From a bacterium (GTDB lineage Bacteria; Zhuqueibacterota; QNDG01; DTFT01): a DNA stretch of 64,000 bases. Within the stretch, counting starts at the first letter, position 1, and every line of letters starts with the position of its first letter. The DNA is taken from NCBI GenBank assembly GCA_016933415.1, contig JAFGAX010000147.1, positions 8,567 through 72,566 of the forward strand, in the 5' to 3' direction. The notes beneath the pieces were generated by a model that was given only the letters and a program-made list of their open reading frames with translations, ran no database searches and was not told the DNA's origin. Shown here one piece after another: positions 1-44,640 of the stretch. Position numbers and translations under genes: made by a program.

Positions 1-899
1 CGTCGCGCCGGGAGATGGAACTGACCCTCAAGTCCGGCCGCAAGGCCTCCATCGGTTATACCGTCACCGACCGGGTGGACAACCAGAGGCGGAAGGTGGG
101 AACCATTGTCTCCTTCCGCGACATCACACTGATCAAGCAGATGCAGAACGAGGTCATCCGGATGGACCGGCTGGCTTCGCTCGGCGTGCTCGCTTCCGGC
201 ATCGCGCATGAAATCAAGAATCCGCTGGCCGGCATCAAGTCACTGGCCCAGGCCTGCGAAGAGGAATTCGAGGGGGAAGACTCGCGCCGGGAATATCTGG
301 CCCGCATCATCCGGCAGGTCAACCGCATGGATGACCTGCTGCGGACCTTTTTCGCGTATGCCAAGCCCAAGCCGCCGGACCGGAAGCCGGTTCCCCTCAG
401 CGACATCGTCCGAGAAGTCGGCCACCTGATGAGCCGAAAAATGGACAAGGCGGGCATCGGCTATTCCGTGGAAATAGCCGATGTCCTTCCGGCCGTGGTC
501 GTGGACGGACCGCAAATCCAGCAGGTTTTTCTGAACCTGATGCTCAATGCCGTGGACGCCATGCCCGAGGGCGGGACCCTGGCGATCCGGGCGGCCGCCG
601 CGGACCCGGATTTCCGGGGCCTGATGCGACGTCGCACGCCGGACATGCATCCGGATCCTTCGCTGAAAGGACCGTCCTACGTGGAAATTCGCATCCGCGA
701 TTCGGGCACTGGCATTCCGGAGGACAAGCTGGAAACCATTTTCGACCCGTTCTTCACCACCAAGCCCAGCGGCCTCGGCCTCGGGCTGTCCATCGTTTAC
801 CGCATCATCGCCGAACACCAGGGGGACATCCGAGTCAAGAGCCGTCCCGATCAGGGGACGGAATTCAGCATTTATTTACCCACGGGAGATCCTTCATGA
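1..899 (+). CDS. Sensor histidine kinase, C-terminal part (gene starts upstream of the window)
   Basis: H-box ASGIAHEIKNPL followed by a HATPase_c region (N-box LMLNAVDA, G-boxes DSGTGI and GLGLGLS); the reading frame is open to the window edge; the stop overlaps the next gene's ATG (ATGA at 896-899). Confidence 0.8.
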   Translation, partial: SRREMELTLKSGRKASIGYTVTDRVDNQRRKVGTIVSFRDITLIKQMQNEVIRMDRLASLGVLASGIAHEIKNPLAGIKSLAQACEEEFEGEDSRREYLARIIRQVNRMDDLLRTFFAYAKPKPPDRKPVPLSDIVREVGHLMSRKMDKAGIGYSVEIADVLPAVVVDGPQIQQVFLNLMLNAVDAMPEGGTLAIRAAAADPDFRGLMRRRTPDMHPDPSLKGPSYVEIRIRDSGTGIPEDKLETIFDPFFTTKPSGLGLGLSIVYRIIAEHQGDIRVKSRPDQGTEFSIYLPTGDPS

Positions 900-2254
900 A
901 TTCCGCCAACATCCTCGTCATCGAGGACAACGAAGACCTTTCATTCACCATATCCAAGGTTCTGCACAAGGAGGGTTTCAAGCTTTTCACGGCGAAGGCC
1001 GGGGAGGAAGGCCTGCTTCTGTTTCGGAAGGAAATCGTGGATCTGCTCCTGCTTGACCTGAAGCTTCCGAAAATGAACGGGCTGGAAGTGCTCTCGCGCG
1101 TCAAAGAGATGGACCCGGATCTCGCCGTCATCATGATGACGGCCTCCACCGACGTCAAGCCGGCCATCGAGGCCATGAAACGGGGCGCCACCGATTATCT
1201 CATGAAACCGTTCGAACTGGACGAGCTGAAACTGGTCGTCAAAAAGGCGCTGGAAATGCATCAGCTCAAAATTGAAGTGGCGCGTCTCCGGCGGGACCAT
1301 GTGAAGGCGAATCCCCACGACACGCTGTACGGCGAGAGTCCGAGAATCAAGGAGATCCGCAAGCTGATCCAGATCGTATCGGAAACTCCCCGGACTTCCG
1401 TTCTCATACAGGGCGAAAGCGGCACGGGCAAGGAACTCGTCTCGAACGCTATTCACACGGCCAGCAGCCGGGCCGGCAAACCCTACATCAAGATCAACTG
1501 CAGCGCCATTCCGGACAATCTTCTGGAAAGCGAGCTTTTCGGCCATGAAAAAGGCGCTTTCACGGACGCGAAACTCATGAAAAAGGGGCTTTTTGAACTC
1601 GCCAACGGGGGCACGATTTTTCTCGATGAAATATCCAGCATGAAGCTCGGGCTGCAGCCCAAAATTCTGCGCGTGCTCGAGACGCAGACGTTCCGCCGCA
1701 TCGGCGGCATCGGCGACATCAAGATCGACATCCGGGTCATCGCCGCCTCCAACACCGACCTCGGTGAACTCGTCAAACTCAAGGAATTCAGGGACGACCT
1801 GTATTACCGGCTGAAAGTCATGGAAATCGACCTGCCTCCGCTCCGGGATCGGAAGGAGGACATCATGCTTCTCGCCAAGCTCTTCCTTCAGGAATTCAAC
1901 AAGGAGTTCAACAAGCGGGTCCAGAAATTTCACGCGAAAACCGAGGAACTCCTTGTGGCCTACCATTGGCCGGGGAACGTCCGGGAACTGAAAAACGTCA
2001 TCGAACGGGCCGTCATTCTCACCCAGGACGACTCCCTTCACCCGGACCACCTTCCCATCGAACTCAAGGAAGAGGGGCGGTCCCCCATGCCGGAAAGAGC
2101 CGACATGGGCAGGATGTCGCTGGAGGACATGGAGAAAATGCACATCGACCAGGTCCTTCAATCCGTCAAAGGGAATAAGTCCCAGGCCGCGAAAATTTTG
2201 AACATTTCAAGATCGACACTTCGGGAAAAACTGAAGGCCTATCATATTTCCTGA
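896..2254 (+). CDS. Sigma-54-dependent two-component response regulator (NtrC family: receiver + AAA+ sigma-54 activator + Fis-type HTH)
   Basis: N-terminal receiver (DLLLLDLKLPKMNG), Walker A GESGTGKE, GAFTDA motif for sigma-54 contact, ESELFGHEKGAFT, C-terminal HTH; 452 aa. Confidence 0.9.
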   Translation: MNSANILVIEDNEDLSFTISKVLHKEGFKLFTAKAGEEGLLLFRKEIVDLLLLDLKLPKMNGLEVLSRVKEMDPDLAVIMMTASTDVKPAIEAMKRGATDYLMKPFELDELKLVVKKALEMHQLKIEVARLRRDHVKANPHDTLYGESPRIKEIRKLIQIVSETPRTSVLIQGESGTGKELVSNAIHTASSRAGKPYIKINCSAIPDNLLESELFGHEKGAFTDAKLMKKGLFELANGGTIFLDEISSMKLGLQPKILRVLETQTFRRIGGIGDIKIDIRVIAASNTDLGELVKLKEFRDDLYYRLKVMEIDLPPLRDRKEDIMLLAKLFLQEFNKEFNKRVQKFHAKTEELLVAYHWPGNVRELKNVIERAVILTQDDSLHPDHLPIELKEEGRSPMPERADMGRMSLEDMEKMHIDQVLQSVKGNKSQAAKILNISRSTLREKLKAYHIS

Positions 2255-2284
2255 TGATCTGATTTCGGCCATGTTTGAAGAACA

Positions 2285-2314
2285 GACGCCTGCACAAGCA
2301 GGCGTTGTCTTTTT
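2285..2314 (+). terminator. Rho-independent terminator after the NtrC-type regulator gene
   Basis: GACGCCTGC-acaa-GCAGGCGT hairpin followed by a T-rich tract gtcTTTTTg. Confidence 0.6.
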
Positions 2315-2377
2315 GCTAAGTTACTGTATATAAATAAGTAAGTTGATTCGCCGGGATTCCCGGGGAAATCTGTTTCC

Positions 2378-2392
2378 TGGTATATATTTTGC
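2378..2392 (+). promoter_or_regulatory. Candidate sigma-54 (-24/-12) promoter
   Basis: TGG-N10-TTGC (cTGGtatatattTTGCc) with the correct GG-N10-GC spacing, about 45 nt upstream of the receiver gene and immediately downstream of a sigma-54 activator gene. Confidence 0.45.
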
Positions 2393-2438
2393 CCGATAAA
2401 GTCTCAGAAAGTCACATCCGTATAAGGAAACAGATCCA

Positions 2439-2840
2439 TTGAAAACCTGGAAAAAAAGAGTTTTGATTGTGGACGATGAAGAGGATTTGACCTGGAGCAT
2501 CGTCCGGGGCCTTTCGAAAGACAAATCCGGCGTCGAAGTGCACTGCGCCAGTTCGGGTTCGCTTGCACTGGATCTGATTCATCGTCATTCCTATGACCTG
2601 CTGGTTACGGACGTGCGGATGCCCGGTCTGGACGGAAAGGGTCTCGTGCAACGGGCGCGATCCATGCATCCGGGCCTGAAAATCATCCTGATGACCGCCT
2701 TTCCGTCTCCGGATGTCCGGGAATTCGCGGAACGCTTCCGCATCTCGGAAACCGTGGAAAAGCCTTTTGAGATGGGGGAATTCCGGCGCCTGATCGGGAA
2801 TCACCTGGAGACCGAATCCGCGTCGTCCGGGGCCGCCTGA
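2439..2840 (+). CDS. Single-domain response regulator (CheY-like receiver)
   Basis: VLIVDDEE...LLVTDVRMPGLDG...KIILMTA receiver signature; 133 aa; TTG start preceded by AAGGAAACA. Confidence 0.8.
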   Translation: MKTWKKRVLIVDDEEDLTWSIVRGLSKDKSGVEVHCASSGSLALDLIHRHSYDLLVTDVRMPGLDGKGLVQRARSMHPGLKIILMTAFPSPDVREFAERFRISETVEKPFEMGEFRRLIGNHLETESASSGAA

Positions 2841-2865
2841 CCGATCACACCCGTCATCAACCGCC

Positions 2866-4470
2866 TTGGGGAGAAACGACTTCATGAAAGACGTTCATGC
2901 ATTATCCGCCGCTCCGGACATTCCGCCGGAACGGATGGATGTCTATCAGACATCCATCCGGGTTCTGGGGGCCGGAGGCGCCGGAAACAACACCATCGAC
3001 CGGCTCCTGAGGCTGGGCATCCGGAATGTGGACACGATCGCCCTCAATACGGATGCGCAGCAGCTCCTCGAGACGCATACCCAGCGGCGCATCCTGATCG
3101 GGAAGAACATCACGGCCGGGCTCGGATCCGGCGGTGACCCCCAGATCGGTGAGCGTTCGGCTGAAGAGAACCATGCCGCGATACGCTCCGCGATCGAAGG
3201 CGCCGATTTGCTGTTCATCACCGGCGGACTCGGCGGCGGCACCGCCACGGGCTCCATTCCGATCATCGGGCGTGTGGCCCGTGAGCAGGGGACCCTGACA
3301 ATGGCCATCGTCACCATGCCCTTCTCCGATGAAGGCATCGTGCGCTGGGAGAACGCCCAGATCGGCCTCGAAAAGATACGCAAGAATGTGGATACCGTGA
3401 TTGTCCTGCGCAATGACAAGCTGCACGACCTGTATCCGGACACCACACTGCTCGATGCTTTCCGCAAGGCGGACGAGATACTCATCCACAGCCTCATCGG
3501 GCTGTCCGACCTGGTGCAGAAACGGGGCCTGATCAATCTCGATTTCGCCGACATCCGGTCGGTTCTCACCGACGGTCCCAACGCCGTCATCGGGCTCGGC
3601 GAGAGCCGATCCGAGAACAGGGCCGAGGAGGCCGCGCGGCGCGCCTTCAGCCATCCCATGATGGACTCCGACATCACGGGCGCCCAGAGCGCCATGGTGC
3701 ACATCACCGGAGGGCCCGACCTGACACTGAAGGAATCCCGGCAGGTCATTCAGGCGCTTTCCCGCAAGCTCGACCCGGGGGCGAAAATCATCTGGGGCGT
3801 GACCATCGACAAATCGGTCAAGGGAACCCTGAAAGTCCTGCTCATCGTGACCGGTCTTGTGGAAAAAGAGGATGATTTTCCCAGGCGCCTCGATGAGCCG
3901 GAAGCCGTTTCCCGGCCTTCCCTCGAGACGGAAGGGACGATGCCCGGTCCGCTTCAGCCGATGCGCGACGACGGAAAGAGCATTTTCGACATCAAGGAAT
4001 CCATCATGGCCTCCGGCGAGGAGACCACCACGCTGACGAAACCCAGAAAGGCCGTCGCCCAGTCTTCGCAGATTTTTTACACGATATTCGAAGAGGAGGC
4101 GGCCGCGGACCTGAAGCGTTTCGACCGTGCGGTCCATCTGCTTCGGGAGACGCCGGACAGCCGCAAAGCCCTGCTGGACGCCCTTCAGTCCTGCAAAATG
4201 CTGTTCGCGTCCGCCCAGATGTTCGGATTCGACGAAACCTGCCAGCTGCTCGGCGCGGTGCAGGATATTCTGCAGAGCGTCCACGCGAAGGAAATCCAGA
4301 TGAATCCGAGAATCCTGGATTCCATCACGCTGGCGATCGAGATGGTCGTGGATCTGATGGAAAACCGCTGCGACGGACGCGGCGAAACCGGGTACATCGT
4401 GGACCGGCTTCGGGACCTCCGGAGCGAGCAGATGGAATCCGCGGCTTCCGCGGACGGGAACAAACCCTGA
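2866..4470 (+). CDS. FtsZ/tubulin-family GTPase paralogue with a C-terminal HPt-like extension
   Basis: GAGGAGNN, NTDAQQL, tubulin signature GGLGGGTATG, MPFSDEG, GLINLDFADIRSV and an FtsZ C-domain; then about 200 extra residues whose pattern (F.EEA...L..LL....PD....L......LKxSA.MFGFD....L.......D.L) matches an HPt/CheA-P1 four-helix bundle; no DIPAFLR-type C-terminal peptide. Confidence 0.85.
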   Translation: MGRNDFMKDVHALSAAPDIPPERMDVYQTSIRVLGAGGAGNNTIDRLLRLGIRNVDTIALNTDAQQLLETHTQRRILIGKNITAGLGSGGDPQIGERSAEENHAAIRSAIEGADLLFITGGLGGGTATGSIPIIGRVAREQGTLTMAIVTMPFSDEGIVRWENAQIGLEKIRKNVDTVIVLRNDKLHDLYPDTTLLDAFRKADEILIHSLIGLSDLVQKRGLINLDFADIRSVLTDGPNAVIGLGESRSENRAEEAARRAFSHPMMDSDITGAQSAMVHITGGPDLTLKESRQVIQALSRKLDPGAKIIWGVTIDKSVKGTLKVLLIVTGLVEKEDDFPRRLDEPEAVSRPSLETEGTMPGPLQPMRDDGKSIFDIKESIMASGEETTTLTKPRKAVAQSSQIFYTIFEEEAAADLKRFDRAVHLLRETPDSRKALLDALQSCKMLFASAQMFGFDETCQLLGAVQDILQSVHAKEIQMNPRILDSITLAIEMVVDLMENRCDGRGETGYIVDRLRDLRSEQMESAASADGNKP

Positions 4471-4488
4471 CCGGCGGATGCGCCGCCG

Positions 4489-4527
4489 CCCGTTTCCAGC
4501 CGGCCGGCAGGAAACGGGTTTTTTTTT
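4489..4527 (+). terminator. Rho-independent terminator
   Basis: CCCGTTTCC-12 nt loop-GGAAACGGG followed by nine T residues. Confidence 0.8.
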
Positions 4528-4542
4528 GACGGAGTCATCGGC

Positions 4543-6195
4543 ATGAACCCGCTTGTTCTGCAGTCCGAGAAGCCGGGCCGGTCCAATCAGGACCACGGGC
4601 CGGCGGCGCGCATCGCCGGAGCCGAACAGGTCCGCGCGGACCACGAAACGTATCTGACCGACGAGTCCCGGATGCCGGGCGGTTTTGCGGACGAACTGGT
4701 GTTCGCGGCCAGTGAAAAACAGGTATGCGAAGCGCTGGTCGGAGCCGGGCAAAGGCGCATCCCGGTGACGGTTTCCGGCGCCAGGACGGGCATTGTCGGC
4801 GGAGCGGTCCCGTTCGGCGGGATGCTGTTATCCATGGAATCCTTCAACGGATTCATCGGCGCATTCCGTCCGGACGGGGGAGGAGACTGGCGGATCCGGG
4901 TTGAACCCGGGCTGACGCTGGAAGCGCTGAATCGGATCATTGAAACCGGACTTCCGGCTGGAAACGGCGGACCGGGTTACGACCCGGACCGGTTTCCGGA
5001 AACCCCCCGGTTTCTGGCTGAATCGGCGTCCTGGTTCTATCCGCCTGATCCCACGGAGAAAACCGCGCAACTCGGCGGAACCGTGGCGACCAATGCTTCC
5101 GGATCACGTTCTCTGAAATACGGCCCCACTCGTGATTGGGTGACGGCACTCCGCGTGGCTCTGTCGGACGGGCGTGTGCTGGAACTCCGGAGAGGCGAAT
5201 GCATTTCAGCCGGAGGATCCGCACTGCACATCCGATTCGATGATCAGAAGCGCATCGTGCATCCGCCCAGGATCCGTCCGGTCCGCGTCAAGTCCAACGC
5301 CGGTTACTGGGGCGGAAGGCCCCTGGATTGGATCGATCTGTTCATCGGATCCGAGGGTACGCTCGGGGTCATCACGGAAATCGAACTCCGGCTGGCCCGA
5401 AAGCCGGAATCCGTGTTCGGCGGCCTCGTCTTTTTCCATACCGAGGAACAGGCCCTTTCCTTTGTCCGGCTTGCGGTTTCGCGGGACGGTCCGCGACCGT
5501 CCGTCCTCGAGTTTTTTGACGCGGCCGGCATCCGTTTCGCGGCCGGCAGTGAATCCGGGGCAGTACGGGCTTTTTCTTTTCCGTTCGATCCGGAATCCGC
5601 AGGTTGCGCCGTGTATTTCGAACAGGAATGCGAGACGGACCGCATGGAGGAGTCGCTGGACGGGTACGGCCGGATGCTGTCCGAGTGCGGCAGTTCTATG
5701 GACGAGGCATGGGGCGCGGTCGACGAAAGGGAATTGAGAAGAATCGCGGATTTCCGTCACGCGCTTCCTGAAGCGATCAATACCGTGATCGGCGGGCGCA
5801 AGCGGATTCATCCGGGGATTCACAAGGTTAGCACGGATTTTGCGGTTCCCGGGGAATCCTTTCACGACATGTTCCGGTTCTACCGGGAACACCTGGATCC
5901 GACTGGCATGGAATACGTCATTTTCGGGCATATCGGTGAAAATCATGTTCATCTGAACGTTCTTCCCGGATCGGAGCAGGAACTGACTGCAGCGATACAG
6001 GTCGTACGGGATCTCGCAACCGAAGCAGTTCGGCTGGGCGGCACGGTCAGCGCGGAGCATGGCATCGGAAAGCTTAAAAAACATCTACTTGCCCTCCAAT
6101 TCGGACCGGAGGACCTTGATTCCATGGTCCGTGTAAAAAAAGAACTGGATCCTGGCTGGATTCTCGGCAGAGGATCTCTTTTTGATATCCCCTAA
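4543..6195 (+). CDS. FAD-linked oxidase (GlcD / D-lactate dehydrogenase family)
   Basis: FAD-binding PCMH-type N-terminal domain (VSGARTGIVGGAVP), C-terminal VAO-type domain ending HGIGKLK; 550 aa. Confidence 0.8.
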   Translation: MNPLVLQSEKPGRSNQDHGPAARIAGAEQVRADHETYLTDESRMPGGFADELVFAASEKQVCEALVGAGQRRIPVTVSGARTGIVGGAVPFGGMLLSMESFNGFIGAFRPDGGGDWRIRVEPGLTLEALNRIIETGLPAGNGGPGYDPDRFPETPRFLAESASWFYPPDPTEKTAQLGGTVATNASGSRSLKYGPTRDWVTALRVALSDGRVLELRRGECISAGGSALHIRFDDQKRIVHPPRIRPVRVKSNAGYWGGRPLDWIDLFIGSEGTLGVITEIELRLARKPESVFGGLVFFHTEEQALSFVRLAVSRDGPRPSVLEFFDAAGIRFAAGSESGAVRAFSFPFDPESAGCAVYFEQECETDRMEESLDGYGRMLSECGSSMDEAWGAVDERELRRIADFRHALPEAINTVIGGRKRIHPGIHKVSTDFAVPGESFHDMFRFYREHLDPTGMEYVIFGHIGENHVHLNVLPGSEQELTAAIQVVRDLATEAVRLGGTVSAEHGIGKLKKHLLALQFGPEDLDSMVRVKKELDPGWILGRGSLFDIP

Positions 6196-6218
6196 CCCGT
6201 TGTATTTATAAAATTTTC

Positions 6219-6247
6219 TTGACATTGCCCGTTTTTTACATTAAATT
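6219..6247 (+). promoter_or_regulatory. Sigma-70 promoter driving tRNA-Val and the thrS operon
   Basis: -35 TTGACA (6219-6224), 17-nt spacer, -10 TAAATT (6242-6247); the tRNA starts about 13 nt downstream. Confidence 0.6.
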
Positions 6248-6258
6248 TGTGACACTTT

Positions 6259-6333
<75 letters not shown>

Positions 6334-6374
6334 CTCGATATTTTCCTGCTAAAGGAGATAATAAAGGACACCTG

Positions 6375-8291
6375 TTGAGTCAAATCACGATCACATTCGA
6401 AGGCGGAACCCAAAAGCAGGTCGAAAAAGGTATTTCCATATCTCAGGCGATTCAGCAGGCGCTCCCCGAAATGGCTCCTTCCGCAATTGCCGCGGTTGTC
6501 AACGGAAAAATGACGGATTTACAGGATCGGATCGAATCGGACGCGACGGTTCAAATCGTCTCGGATCGCGATCCCGAAGGCCTGCATGTATTCTGGCACA
6601 GCGCCTCCCACGTGATGGCCCAGGCGGTCCGCGCTCTTTTCCCGGACGCCAAACTGGGCATCGGTCCTTCCATCGAGAACGGGTTCTATTACGATTTCAG
6701 CTTGGACAGGACTCTGACCGCAGAGGATCTGCCGGCCATTGAAGCGAAGATGAAGGAGATCGTCAAAGCCGATCAGCCCTTCATCCGCGACCGGCTGTCT
6801 CCGGAAGAGGCCGAGGCGTTGTTCAGAAGCCGGGGCGAGGATTTCAAACTCGAGCTGATCCGCGATCTCCCGGCCGACAGCCTGACCGTCTACCGCAACG
6901 GCGATTTCGTCGACCTGTGCCGCGGGCCTCATGTTCCGGCCACCGGGCGGATCCGGCATTTCAAGCTGCTCAGCGTGGCCGGCGCCTACTGGCGGGGCGA
7001 CGAACGAAACGCCGTGATGCAGCGGATTTACGGCATCGCGTTCCGCGACGGCGATTCACTCAAGAGCCATCTGGCCATGCTGGAGGAGGCCCGCAAGCGC
7101 GATCACCGCAAGCTGGGAAAAGAGCTGGACCTGTTCAGTTTTCAGCCCGAAGGTCCGGGGTTCGCATTCTGGCACCCGAATGGGATGTCGCTTTACAATT
7201 CGGCCATGGAGGCGGTACGCGAAATCCTCATCCGCAAGGGTTACGCCGAGATCAAGACGCCGATTCTGCTCAACGAGTCGCTGTGGCACCGGAGCGGACA
7301 CTGGGATCATTACAAGGAGAACATGTACTTCACGAGCATCGACGAACAGCCGTTCGCCGTGAAGCCCATGAACTGCCCCGGGTGTCTTCTCGTCTACCGC
7401 CACACGCCGCGCTCCTACCGCGACCTTCCCGTGAAATTCATGGAAATGGGGCTGGTCCACCGGCATGAGAAATCGGGCGTTCTGCACGGTCTGTTCCGCG
7501 TCCGTCAGTTCACCCAGGACGACGCGCACGTGTTCTGCACGCCGGATCAGCTCGAGGCGGAAATCGGGAAACTGATCGATCTTGTGGCCGAAGTGTATGC
7601 CCTTTTCGGATTCCACCGCTATCAGATCGAGGTCTCGACGCGCCCCTCGAAATCCATCGGGTCCGACGAGATGTGGAAACGCGCCGAAGACGCCCTGACG
7701 CATTCGCTTGCTTCCAAGGGAATCGCGTATACGCTGAACCCCGGTGAAGGCGCCTTTTACGGGCCGAAAATCGACTATCACATCCAGGATTCGCTCGGCC
7801 GGACATGGCAGTGCGGAACGATCCAGGTGGATTATTCCATGCCCGAGCGGTTCGACCTGGAGTACGTCGGTGCGGACAACGCGAAACACAGACCCGTCAT
7901 GATCCACCGCGCCATTTTCGGCTCCATCGAGCGTTTCATCGGAATCCTGATCGAGCATTTCGGCGGCGCGTTCCCGCTGTGGCTGGCCCCGGTTCAGTGC
8001 GTGGTGATCCCCATTACGGACAAGCATCATGCCGCGGCCGCCGAGGCGGCCGACCGGCTCGACCGTGAGGGCATCCGCGTCCGGGTCGACGGCCGAAACG
8101 AGAAGATGGGCTATAAAATCCGGGAGGCGGAGAAGCTGAAAATACCCGCGATGGCCGTGATCGGAGACCGGGAGGCGGAACAGGGTGCCGTATCCGTCCG
8201 CCGGCACGGGCGCGGCGATCTCGGCTCCCTGCCGCTCGGTGCATTCGCGGAATCCCTGAAGGACGAAATCGCAAGGAGGGCGAGCCATTAG
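6375..8291 (+). CDS. thrS: Threonyl-tRNA synthetase
   Basis: TGS and editing domains, class II core with HRDLK-type motifs, anticodon-binding C-terminus. The ORF-track start (6288) lies inside the tRNA-Val gene, so the start is placed at the in-frame TTG at 6375, preceded by AAAGGA. Confidence 0.9.
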   Translation: MSQITITFEGGTQKQVEKGISISQAIQQALPEMAPSAIAAVVNGKMTDLQDRIESDATVQIVSDRDPEGLHVFWHSASHVMAQAVRALFPDAKLGIGPSIENGFYYDFSLDRTLTAEDLPAIEAKMKEIVKADQPFIRDRLSPEEAEALFRSRGEDFKLELIRDLPADSLTVYRNGDFVDLCRGPHVPATGRIRHFKLLSVAGAYWRGDERNAVMQRIYGIAFRDGDSLKSHLAMLEEARKRDHRKLGKELDLFSFQPEGPGFAFWHPNGMSLYNSAMEAVREILIRKGYAEIKTPILLNESLWHRSGHWDHYKENMYFTSIDEQPFAVKPMNCPGCLLVYRHTPRSYRDLPVKFMEMGLVHRHEKSGVLHGLFRVRQFTQDDAHVFCTPDQLEAEIGKLIDLVAEVYALFGFHRYQIEVSTRPSKSIGSDEMWKRAEDALTHSLASKGIAYTLNPGEGAFYGPKIDYHIQDSLGRTWQCGTIQVDYSMPERFDLEYVGADNAKHRPVMIHRAIFGSIERFIGILIEHFGGAFPLWLAPVQCVVIPITDKHHAAAAEAADRLDREGIRVRVDGRNEKMGYKIREAEKLKIPAMAVIGDREAEQGAVSVRRHGRGDLGSLPLGAFAESLKDEIARRASH

Positions 8292-37841: not shown

Positions 37842-38525
37842 TCAGGCAAAACGGTATCCCATCCCGTGTATGGTCTGAATGTACCGGGAGGGGTTGGTTT
37901 TCTCCCCGAGTTTTTCTCTCAGACGCTTGACATGAACGTCCACGGTTCTATCCGTGACGTACACTTTCTCGCCCCACACCTTTTCGAGAATCTCCTCCCG
38001 GGAAAAGATCGTGTCGCGGTGCGTAACCAGAAGGTACAGGAGCTTGAACTGCGTATACGTGAGGTCCACCGGCTTACCGCTTTTCGTCACCTCATGGGTC
38101 TCAATGTTGATTTCGATGTCCCTGATCTGTATCGTGTTCGGCGATGTGTCGACCAGATCGATGCGCCGGATCAGGGCCTTCACCTTGGCCACCAGCTCCT
38201 CAAAGGCCTCCGTCCCCGCCTGGCATTCATCCGCACCGTTCTCGAGCGCACTGATGCGGTCCGATGATTTACGGCTTCCGGTCAGGACGACGAGCGCGGT
38301 TTTTCGGTTGGTTTCCTGCAGCAGACGGTTGATTTCGCCGATTTTGTCCTGTGCGGCGGCGTAATCAATGACGAACGCGCGCGGATTCTCCTTTTTCAGA
38401 AGCGGCAGTGCATCCTGGTCCGGCGGGACTGAAACCACCCGGAAACCGGCGGAAGTGAAATGCCTTGCGATCTCCTTTTCGACCGATGGGTCCGGCGTGG
38501 CAACGAGAACTTTGGGTGCGGTCAT
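37842..38525 (-). CDS. OmpR-family response regulator (receiver + winged helix)
   Basis: Receiver FVIDYAA, C-terminal trans_reg_C (LTYTQFKLLYLL...RTVDVHVKRLREKL...IQTIHGMGYRF); no kinase gene adjacent. Confidence 0.85.
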   Translation of the reverse strand: MTAPKVLVATPDPSVEKEIARHFTSAGFRVVSVPPDQDALPLLKKENPRAFVIDYAAAQDKIGEINRLLQETNRKTALVVLTGSRKSSDRISALENGADECQAGTEAFEELVAKVKALIRRIDLVDTSPNTIQIRDIEINIETHEVTKSGKPVDLTYTQFKLLYLLVTHRDTIFSREEILEKVWGEKVYVTDRTVDVHVKRLREKLGEKTNPSRYIQTIHGMGYRFA

Positions 38526-38735
38526 GGTGGCATCCGTTTGTTAATGAAACATCACAGATGTGAACGACAGGTAATAGAATGCAAGTTCCATGCCACCCAA
38601 ATGTACTAATATTCAGGCGTAACAGACATCCTCGATCGTGATCGGGAGGGAAAAACCGGATGGGGGGAGGAAAAAAATGCCTGTTCCTGTACCGATTCAA
38701 GCCTCCAATCCGCTCAGTCGTTTGAAATGAACCGG

Positions 38736-42057: not shown

Positions 42058-44529
42058 CTAATGGGTGTCCTGGGGCTTGACCGACCTGGGATGATCAACT
42101 TTTTTCTTGACCGATTCGGCATCCACGAATTCGAGCCCGTCGTCCTTGCTGCGGACCAGGATCTGGGCGCCGCTTGGGAAACGGTTTCTCAGGAGTTCCT
42201 CGGCGATCGGGTCCTCCACGTACTTCCGCACAATGCGGCGGACCTGCCGGGCGCCGTAAGTGGGGTCATATCCCTTGTCTACGAGGAATTCCTTGGCCTT
42301 GTCCGTGAAAACGACCTGCACGTTCCGATCCTGAAGTTCCTTCAGGCTGTTCTGCAGCGCCAGATCGACGATACGGAGCATGTGTTCCCGGCGGAGCGGC
42401 CGGAATACCACGCTCTCGTCAATGCGGTTGATGAATTCCGGGTTGAACAGCCTCTTGGTCTCCTCCAGCATGACGGATCGCATCGACTCGTAGTCGATTT
42501 CGTCGGCTTTTGCGCTGAATCCGTAAGATCCCTTGCGGATCGCGCGGGTGCCGATATTGGAGGTCATGATCAGAATCGTGTTCTTAAAATCGACTTTCCG
42601 GCCGAGTCCGTCGGTGAGGTGGCCGTCGTCCAGAATCTGCAGGAGGAGATTGAAGACGTCCGGATGGGCCTTTTCAATCTCGTCCAGCAGCACGACGGAA
42701 TAGGGCCTTCGGCGCACTTTCTCCGTCAGCTGTCCCCCCTCCTCGTAGCCGACATAGCCGGGAGGCGCGCCGGTCATTCGGGAAACGGCGAATTTTTCCA
42801 TGAACTCCGACATGTCCATCCGGATCAGGGCGTTTTCGTCGTCGAACAGGTACTCGGCGAGCACTTTGGCCAGGTAGGTCTTGCCGACACCGGTGGGCCC
42901 CAGGAAGAGAAATGAGCCGATCGGACGGCGGGGATCCTTGAGACCCGCGCGTGTCCGGCAGATGGCCCGGCTCAGAATGTCGATGCTTTCGTCCTGGCCG
43001 ATCACACGCTGTTTCAGGACCGAGGACATGGCGAGCAGTTTTTCGGACTCGGACTGGGCGACGCGGGACATGGGAATGCCGGTCATCATCGAGACGACTT
43101 CCGCGATGTCGTCCATCGTGACCGTGGCCAGGGCCTCCCCTTCCTCCTCCTCCCACCGTTTCCGGGCGTCCTCGAGATCCGTCTGAAGCTTTTTCTCTCG
43201 ATCCCGCAGAACGGCGGCTTTCTCGAACTCCTGGTTCCGGATCACGTTTTCCTTCTCGGTTCGGATGACCTTGAGACGCTCCTCGAACATGGTGATCTCG
43301 CGCGGAACGGCGATATTGGCGAGATGCACCTTCGATCCGGCCTCATCCAGCACGTCGATGGCCTTGTCCGGCAGGAACTTGTCGGTGATGTACCGGTCCG
43401 AAAGACGCACGCAGGCTTCGACTGCGTCCTCGGCGTAGCGAATCCGATGATGCTTTTCATACCGCTCCCGCAGACCGTACAGGATGCGGATGGTGTCCTG
43501 CACCGAGGGCGGATCGACGATCACCTTCTGAAAACGCCGTTCCAGGGCCCCGTCCTTTTCGATGTACTGCCGGTACTCGTCCAGCGTGGTCGCGCCGATG
43601 CACTGCAGTTCACCGCGGGCCAGCGCGGGCTTGAACATGTTCGATGCGTCCAGAGATCCGGACGCGCCGCCGGCCCCGACGATGGTGTGCAGTTCGTCGA
43701 TGAAGAGGATGATGTTCTTCGATTTGCCGAGCTCGTTCATAATGGCTTTCATGCGCTCTTCGAACTGGCCGCGGTATTTTGTGCCTGCCACGATGGCGCC
43801 GAGGTCCAGCGTCACCACGCGCTTGTTGTGCAGGACCCGCGAGACGTTCTTCTCGATGATGCGCATGGCCAGGCCTTCGGCGATGGCCGTCTTGCCGACT
43901 CCCGGCTCTCCGATGAGGACGGGATTGTTTTTCTTGCGGCGGGACAGGATCTGGGCAACCCGTTGGATTTCGTTTTCGCGACCGATGACGGGATCCAGTT
44001 CCCCCTTCTGCGCGAGTACGGTCAGGTCCCGGCCGAAATGGTCGAGTGCCGGCGTCTGCGATTTGCTCTTCGGTTCCTTCTGCGTGGACGTGCCCCGCAG
44101 GACGTTTTCCAGCTCTTCGAGAACGGCCTCGTAGGTGACATCGAAGCTCGACAGCACCTGGGCGGCGATGCCCTCCTGGTCGCGGAGCAGGGCCAGCAGC
44201 AGATGCTCGGTTCCGATCACGTTCGATTTGAAGCGTTCGGCTTCGGCCGTGGCCACGCGCAGCACCCGTTCTGCCCGCTTCGTGAACGGTATATTACCCA
44301 CGGTGATGGTGCCGCCGGAAGACTTGACCGTGTCTTCGACCGCTTTTTTCAGTTCCTCGAGATCCAGGTCCATATTCTGAAAGATCTCAATGGCCACGCC
44401 TCCGCCCTCCTTGATGAGGCCGAGCAGAAGGTGCTCCGTGCCGATGTAGTCGTGGCCGAGCCGCAACGCTTCTTCCCGGGAAAGCTGAATCACGAGTTGT
44501 ACACGTTGCGAAAAATTATTCTTGATCAT
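42058..44529 (-). CDS. clpC: ClpC/ClpA-type AAA+ chaperone (Clp_N repeats, two AAA+ modules, UVR motif)
   Basis: Two Clp_N repeats, Walker A GEPGVGKT and [11 protein letters not shown]-like coiled coil between the AAA+ modules, ClpB_D2-small domain; 823 aa. Confidence 0.9.
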
Positions 44530-44640
44530 GGTGTAAGTCCTTTATTCTGAAAAAAATGACAGCCCTAATTTGATATGCAAATATCAGGCCATCAAACCGG
44601 AATCAGTCAGCGTTTTTGACGGCGTCTAACATCATATTTT

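Follow-up and report, generated by a model that had tools for sequence, protein, structure and literature searches.

The first 4,527 nucleotides of the window, by which we mean the whole 64,000-nucleotide stretch analyzed here (contig JAFGAX010000147.1 of a bacterium of the Zhuqueibacterota), constitute, as judged from sequence, a conserved signaling-to-cytoskeleton module in which a predicted sigma-54 promoter drives an operon composed of a single-domain receiver and an archaeal-type FtsZ. The FtsZ ends in a domain with the fold of a CheA-P1-type histidine phosphotransfer (HPt) domain, in which the phospho-accepting histidine has been replaced, hereafter termed the pseudo-HPt. The best explanation for this arrangement, to which we assign a probability of roughly 0.55, is that a sigma-54 activator would gate the expression of the receiver and FtsZ, and that the receiver would dock on the pseudo-HPt to control FtsZ assembly. 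The order of elements described in an earlier note on this DNA (kinase, activator, terminator, promoter, receiver, FtsZ fusion, and terminator) was recovered at the following positions.

1 to 899, forward strand: 3′ part of the gene for a PAS-PAS sensor histidine kinase, with HisKA and HATPase_c domains (Pfam)
896 to 2254, forward strand: NtrC-type sigma-54 enhancer-binding protein (the activator), 452 aa, with REC, Sigma54_activat, AAA_lid_14, and HTH_8 domains
2255 to 2271, no strand assigned: candidate upstream activator site TGATCTGATTTCGGCCA, the second conserved block of the spacer alignment
2285 to 2316, forward strand: intrinsic terminator 3′ of the activator gene, a hairpin (2285 to 2306) followed by a T-rich tail
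2378 to 2393, forward strand: predicted sigma-54 (−24/−12) promoter TGGTATATATTTTGCC, read as TGGTAT-ATATT-TTGCC, from a consensus match and a footprint
2439 to 2840, forward strand: single-domain receiver, 133 aa, without an output domain (Response_reg)
2884 to 4470, forward strand: FtsZ with a C-terminal pseudo-HPt, 528 aa (Tubulin and FtsZ_C)
2956 to 3852, forward strand: FtsZ GTPase core, residues 25 to 323, archaeal-FtsZ1-like, with a predicted local distance difference test score (pLDDT) of about 90
3979 to 4008, forward strand: linker peptide SIFDIKESIM, residues 366 to 375, near-invariant in the family alignment
4060 to 4452, forward strand: CheA-P1-type five-helix HPt-like domain, residues 393 to 523, from a sequence match, AlphaFold, and Foldseek
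4489 to 4527, forward strand: intrinsic terminator ending the receiver-ftsZ operon, a hairpin (4489 to 4518) followed by U9 (−32.6 kcal/mol; z = −2.4)

The kinase open reading frame (ORF) is truncated by the 5′ edge of the window, and its TGA overlaps the ATG of the activator gene as ATGA (896 to 899). The terminator behind the activator gene has a 9-bp stem with 6 GC pairs, and the receiver and FtsZ genes, separated by a 43-nt gap, are flanked by this terminator and the one closing the operon. The receiver gene starts at a TTG with AAGGAAA located 9 nt upstream, while the ftsZ ORF opens at TTG 2866, the likely start being ATG 2884, which is preceded by GGGGAG. No structured RNA was detected by Rfam in the receiver-ftsZ leader.

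Sigma-54 control of the receiver-ftsZ operon is well supported by sequence comparison. Of the 21 orthologous activator-receiver spacers, 20 carried the element TGGTAY-N5-TTGC where the alignment places it, against a chance expectation of about 0.01 matches per spacer, and the remaining spacer (L009) contained CGGCAT-N5-TTGC, in which GG-N10-GC is kept. The promoter was the only strongly conserved block, the rest of the spacers having diverged beyond easy alignment. This phylogenetic footprint supports the candidate sigma-54 promoter of the earlier note, where the spacing had been miscounted: the reported TGG-N10-TTGC is actually TGG-N8-TTGC, corresponding to the canonical GG-N10-GC spacing. 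The window promoter exhibited one mismatch to TGGYAY-N5-TTGCW and is situated 46 nt before the receiver start codon (about 35 to 50 nt across loci), with a predicted transcript start at about 2404 and a leader of about 35 nt. The promoter pattern was not enriched in the window (5 matches versus 7.5 expected). Because neither promoter pattern was enriched window-wide, the statistics of this one sequence lend the promoter no support, and its significance stems from its position and from its conservation in the 21 spacers. The activator-receiver spacer contained no sigma-70-like promoter.

A second, weaker footprint adjoins the activator stop codon, with the palindrome-like consensus TGcTCTGATTTTGACCAC. 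We infer that elements of this type are candidate activator-binding sites. A perfect palindrome, TGGTC-N7-GACCA, was observed in L018, and similar palindromes were located 150 to 190 bp upstream of the sigma-54 promoters in two distant loci (L025 and L026); in a strict search for TGGNC-N7-GNCCA, these three loci were the only ones whose activator-receiver spacer held a perfect copy. Sigma-54-like elements were also observed elsewhere in the window. A perfect consensus, TGGCATGGAACTTGCA, lies at 38580 to 38595 on the reverse strand and precedes by about 55 nt the gene for an OmpR-type response regulator (37842 to 38525, reverse strand), which heads an exopolysaccharide cluster encoding an epimerase, a Wzz/tyrosine-kinase-like protein, glycosyltransferases, and a flippase. 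Another element, TGGCCTGATATTTGCA, lies at 44576 to 44591 on the reverse strand and precedes by about 47 nt the gene for a chaperone of the ClpB/ClpC type (42058 to 44529, reverse strand). No second activator gene was found in the 64-kb window.

The linkage of the four genes was examined by a locus scan in which each species was represented by a single genome and aligned C-terminal regions of the FtsZ family served as the query, with up to 10 kb of flanking DNA retrieved on each side of a match. The scan yielded 23 related loci, all from metagenome-assembled genomes of uncultured bacteria, two of which are labeled candidate division KSB1; one further match, L024, was set aside as weak and unrelated. 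Genes for the PAS kinase, the activator, the receiver, and the FtsZ fusion were found by tblastn in this order in all 20 species-level loci with enough flank, and thrS was located downstream wherever the flank allowed. The full-length kinase orthologue in L001, a 96%-identical relative, comprises 640 aa with two PAS domains (L001:5011-6933); kinase orthologues were 56 to 67% identical to the window kinase (94 to 96% in three near-identical loci), and their position was constant by tblastn. The view of the region as a self-contained module did not survive this comparison, because in relatives a second PAS kinase and a REC-GGDEF protein are encoded immediately upstream, beyond the window edge. 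In L001, these two genes (the second kinase being 743 aa long) precede that of the PAS-PAS kinase, the three together occupying positions 1888 to 6933, and both were seen by tblastn in most relatives. The REC-GGDEF diguanylate cyclase hints at a cyclic di-GMP branch of the same signaling unit.

The activator combines the features expected of the NtrC type, namely, a REC domain, an AAA+ sigma-54 interaction domain (Sigma54_activat, 219 bits in Pfam), a Fis-type helix-turn-helix, and both Walker A (GESGTGKE) and Walker B (FLDE) motifs. Its sigma-54 contact loop reads GAFTDA, not GAFTGA, in 17 of the 20 orthologues, the window copy included. GAFTDA was among the variants expected to remain functional in a regulome study of Desulfovibrio vulgaris (PMC4641369), and the effect of the substitution has also been regarded as unknown (PMC10714721). 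Helix 1 of the activator receiver domain (NEDLSFTIS) resembles that of the single-domain receiver (DDEEDLTWSIS), a likeness that is compatible with one kinase feeding both proteins, although it is only a hint.

The C-terminal domain of the FtsZ protein was not called by Pfam when the full protein was scanned, and when the domain was scanned alone, its Hpt score of 16.8 bits fell short of the 24.6-bit cutoff; a few relatives do have a precomputed PF01627 match. A phmmer search against the PDB retrieved Thermotoga maritima CheA P1 (2ld6; E 1e-4), with similarity around the AxxMFGF helix, and the phospho-His of the CheA motif H-T-L-K-G aligned with Lys438 (4195 to 4197), within SCKMLFASAQMFGF. 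An AlphaFold model of the domain, built from 20 family sequences, displayed five helices with pLDDT values above 90. Its top Foldseek matches were all CheA P1 domains (3kyi, 1i5n, 2ld6, and 1tqg; template modeling [TM] score, 0.8 to 0.89; root mean square deviation, 1.2 to 2.4 Å), led by 3kyi, the CheA3-P1/CheY6 complex. Among 119 full-length relatives, the former His position was occupied by Lys in 97, Ser in 10, and Arg in 4, and by His in none. With regard to the FtsZ-HPt fusion proposed in the earlier note, the CheA-P1-type HPt fold was therefore upheld by AlphaFold, Foldseek, and phmmer, whereas the phospho-His was missing from every relative; the sequence evidence identifies the domain as a pseudo-HPt and not a canonical phosphotransfer site. 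Since the His is replaced in 119 of 119 sequences while few parts of the protein are as strongly conserved as the surrounding motif QSCKLLxASAQMFGFDE, the domain is under strong purifying selection for a function other than His phosphotransfer. The pseudo-HPt is more likely a receiver-docking surface.

Two neighboring positions deserve mention (residues 437 to 441; window positions 4192 to 4206). Cys437, immediately before Lys438, was conserved in 105 of the 119 relatives, and position 441, one helical turn on, is Phe in the window protein, His in 30 relatives, and otherwise mostly Leu or Gln. In the full-length AlphaFold model, a disordered linker (329 to 391) separates the GTPase core (25 to 323) from the helical bundle (393 to 523). 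The linker peptide SIFDIKESIM was modeled, with low confidence, as a short isolated helix, and a motif of the type F-[DE]-I-[KRNQ]-[DE] was present in 111 of the 119 relatives.

The putative docking partner is an intact receiver. It matched Response_reg (PF00072) at 72 bits, carries no output domain, and retains all acceptor-site residues (D12, D13, D58, T86, and K108), which are conserved among relatives, in agreement with its earlier description as a non-DNA-binding phospho-acceptor. Helix 1, DDEEDLTWSIS, was near-invariant even though the relatives are only 40 to 50% identical overall; this helix forms the receiver face that contacts dimerization and histidine phosphotransfer (DHp) and HPt helices. 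The loci inspected showed no che genes, and the term CheY-like denotes architecture only.

The same receiver type accompanies the fusion across a deep divergence. A distant subfamily of five loci (L025 to L029; 40 to 45% identity) has Ser at the former His site, the 437/438 pair reading A-S, C-S, or C-I. The order in these clusters is a receiver, a ParA/MinD-like ATPase, sometimes a second receiver, an SLT lytic transglycosylase, an unannotated protein of 430 to 874 aa (with a faint Hpt match in two loci), the FtsZ fusion, and an unannotated protein of 214 to 448 aa. The first receiver is 41 to 45% identical to the window receiver, shares its DDEEDLTWSIS and YIEKPFE signatures, and is fused to a PATAN-type domain in two loci. 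A kinase and a sigma-54 activator are encoded directly upstream in three of the five loci, and both loci that were scanned for a consensus −24/−12 element have one ahead of the first receiver gene (TGGCACATGCTTTGC in L026 and CGGCACGCTGTTTGC in L025). On this comparison, a broader, undescribed system has as its invariant core the receiver/FtsZ-pseudo-HPt pair with its predicted sigma-54 control.

These data can be accommodated in the following model. One or both PAS kinases would sense a signal and phosphorylate the activator, which would bind the palindrome-like element adjoining the stop codon of its own gene and would open the sigma-54 promoter, so that the receiver and FtsZ would be made only on demand. 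The receiver, phosphorylated by one of the adjacent kinases, would then dock on the pseudo-HPt bundle as CheY does on CheA P1. Since the bundle has Lys where CheA P1 has its His, no phosphotransfer would follow, and the complex would either persist or form according to phosphorylation state. In this manner, the complex could read receiver phosphorylation and switch FtsZ assembly, bundling, or localization; in relatives, the filament may work together with the ParA/MinD-like and lytic transglycosylase proteins. The two-tier circuit put forward in the earlier note is consistent with the linkage in 20 of 20 loci, the footprinted promoter, the intact acceptor residues of the receiver, and the terminator-bounded gene pair.

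A different role for the bundle has to be weighed against this docking model. The bundle might serve only FtsZ self-association or bundling, or bind some other partner, with the receiver acting elsewhere, e.g., shaping the phosphorylation of the activator in the role of a phosphate sink. Helical bundles often mediate oligomerization, and single-domain receivers are well known as phosphate sinks; moreover, the full-length model displays no partner surface, and the conserved linker sequence SIFDIKESI points to at least one additional partner. However, the fold is specifically that of the five-helix CheA P1 and not a generic bundle, the surroundings of the former His site are the most conserved part of the domain, and the receiver type with its near-invariant helix 1 tracks the fusion from the window family to the distant subfamily. 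We therefore consider a receiver-independent bundle unlikely.

Which kind of FtsZ the module encodes bears on its function. The protein scored 146 bits against PF00091 and 103 bits against PF12327, with PDB FtsZ matches down to E 1e-100, and the G-box GGGTATGS and T7 loop NLDFAD are present, their columns being invariant in the family alignment. The best PDB match to the core was Methanocaldococcus jannaschii FtsZ1 (1fsz; 339 bits), compared with 268 bits for the best bacterial FtsZ, from Staphylococcus aureus, and about 235 for that of Escherichia coli. In an exhaustive core-only search of 1.84 billion representative proteins, a family representative appeared near the top, followed by ten long FtsZs (48 to 53% identical in the core), all carrying a His-less HPt-like domain, and then by FtsZs with archaeal-type ...GIEFVE tails (284 to 338 bits); FtsZs with the bacterial D-I-P-x-F-L-R tail appeared only at 280 bits or below. 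Neither the bacterial FtsA/ZipA-type D-I-P-x-F-L-R tail peptide nor the archaeal tail motif was found in any of the 119 family members. A division and cell wall (dcw) context, i.e., adjoining ftsA, ftsQ, or mur genes, was absent from all 28 loci inspected; the neighbors were receiver and activator genes upstream, and FAD-oxidase/thrS or unannotated genes downstream. Because the core is archaeal-FtsZ1-like, the tail peptides are missing, and the dcw context is absent, the FtsZ fusion is probably an archaeal-type xenologue or paralogue rather than the vertically inherited division FtsZ.

Full-length relatives formed more than 100 clusters at 90% identity, 40 to 96% identical to the window fusion and confined to uncultured lineages, under the database label "cell division protein FtsZ" only. 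Three related proteins of 744 to 840 aa (P0121 to P0123) contain two FtsZ cores per polypeptide, with two matched stretches each. Among distant fusion relatives (P0106 to P0132), many end in a conserved (D/E)-A-V-x-Y-V-x-x-L-(F/L) or VMEYLDDLF tail; this tail, absent from the family of the window protein, may be a second short linear motif for a partner.

The archaeal-type protein with its novel tail could, however, have replaced the bacterial FtsZ and be the sole housekeeping copy, with sigma-54 and the receiver merely tuning an essential gene, possibly beside an unrecognized constitutive promoter. All species-level relatives recovered carry the gene, its product is about as slow to evolve as ThrS (57 to 64% versus 56 to 66% identity), and it adjoins the housekeeping genes for tRNA-Val and ThrS; moreover, neither the 64-kb window nor any of the 20-kb loci revealed a second ftsZ. 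This last observation means little, since only about 20 kb per genome was visible. A sigma-54 promoter, silent without its activator, would be an odd choice for an essential gene, and the spacer has no sigma-70-like promoter beside it; the lack of an FtsA-, ZipA-, or SepF-binding peptide (0 of 119) and of a dcw context (0 of 28) likewise speaks against a housekeeping role. Taken together, we judge sole housekeeping function to be rather improbable, and the filament is most likely, from its sequence context, an accessory structure and not the housekeeping division ring. Roles such as division arrest or shape change are speculation.

Non-canonical phosphotransfer through Cys437, Lys438, or the His one turn later, which would make FtsZ a phosphorylated member of the relay, could draw on the frequency of these residues (105, 97, and 30 of 119, respectively) but is highly improbable, given that position 441 is not conserved and is Phe in the window protein, that the 437/438 pair changes in the distant subfamily, and that we know of no precedent for phosphotransfer by Cys or Lys in HPt domains.

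Activator-gated expression with receiver docking remains our preferred explanation, and several points weigh against it. It draws on sequence and comparison, and the roughly 25 receiver/FtsZ sequence pairs were too few for covariation analysis. The full-length model was without confident interdomain packing (predicted TM score, 0.59). Because the conserved cluster encodes three receiver domains and two kinases, the pairing of kinases with receivers is ambiguous. In most loci the candidate activator site is a degenerate consensus, and the window copy, TGATCTGATTTCGGCCA, is an imperfect palindrome. The 64-kb window does not contain rpoN and showed no RpoN box, and a second, housekeeping ftsZ was likewise unseen within the stretch visible per genome.

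Downstream of the operon, the window contains genes for an FAD-linked oxidase, tRNA-Val, and ThrS. The oxidase gene (4543 to 6195), situated between ftsZ and thrS, was present in only about half of the related loci, and the oxidase is probably not part of the module because a strong terminator separates its gene from ftsZ. The tRNA-Val (GAC) gene occupies 6260 to 6334 and is preceded by a good sigma-70-like promoter, TTGACA-17-TAAATT (6219 to 6247). Because the mechanically called thrS ORF begins within the tRNA gene, at 6288, the actual start of thrS has to be further downstream.

Several known systems resemble parts of this module. In Caulobacter, the degenerate kinase DivL, with Tyr in place of His, reads the phosphorylated single-domain receiver DivK. 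As proposed here, a His-less helical domain of the phosphotransfer type senses receiver phosphorylation in a process tied to the cell cycle and division, but DivL employs a DHp/catalytic kinase scaffold, not an HPt bundle, and has no cytoskeletal fusion. Accessory FtsZ paralogues include FtsZm of magnetotactic bacteria and the FtsZl families of Makarova and Koonin 2010 (PMC2875224). They are likewise extra members of the tubulin family encoded outside dcw, with presumed specialized membrane or cell-shape roles, but none is known to have an HPt-like domain, a partner receiver, or sigma-54 control. The window module shares with the Rhodobacter sphaeroides CheA3-P1/CheY6 pair (3kyi) the five-helix fold and a CheY-like single-domain receiver encoded next door. 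It differs from CheA P1 in having Lys for the phospho-His, in being fused to FtsZ instead of a kinase, and in the lack of chemotaxis genes nearby. M. jannaschii FtsZ1 is the closest solved core, and the nearest non-fusion representatives have ...GIEFVE tails, but the host here is bacterial, to judge by its sigma-54 activator and two-component genes, and in place of the archaeal tail peptide the protein carries the linker peptide and the pseudo-HPt. In Arabidopsis, AHP6 has an HPt fold without the conserved His and acts by partner binding (PMC11497342, PMC7402358); it is a free-standing competitive phosphorelay inhibitor, whereas the pseudo-HPt is the tail of a bacterial cytoskeletal GTPase. 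In the D. vulgaris ORP cluster, the activator DVU2106, which has GAFTDA, drives sigma-54 promoters of genes annotated for cell division (PMC4641369), although DVU2106 is a one-component regulator and the ORP operons contain no FtsZ, receiver, or HPt-like domain.

A full-text literature search found no description of the FtsZ-pseudo-HPt architecture. All of the parts come from known families; what the searchable literature lacks is their combination, in which a pseudo-HPt and a dedicated receiver accompany an archaeal-type FtsZ under sigma-54 control. A bolder and more tentative proposal, which we hold to be possible but short of an even chance, is that the module is a phospho-switchable cytoskeleton, in which a bacterially acquired archaeal-type tubulin homologue uses a dead CheA-P1 domain to read a dedicated receiver, two-component signaling controlling its assembly directly and its synthesis via sigma-54. 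In related lineages, the pair would organize the ParA/MinD-like ATPase, the lytic transglycosylase, and the large unannotated proteins into an alternative, inducible machine for division or cell remodeling. The small, soluble components make the central claim directly testable in vitro. More broadly, a large family is hidden under the generic FtsZ annotation, and its archaeal-like core raises the question of inter-domain transfer of cytoskeletal genes. The module would be a bacterial example of a pseudo-HPt. FtsZ is known to be regulated through dedicated inhibitors, through positioning systems, and at the level of transcription, and a domain for receiver docking within FtsZ itself would be a new principle of its control.

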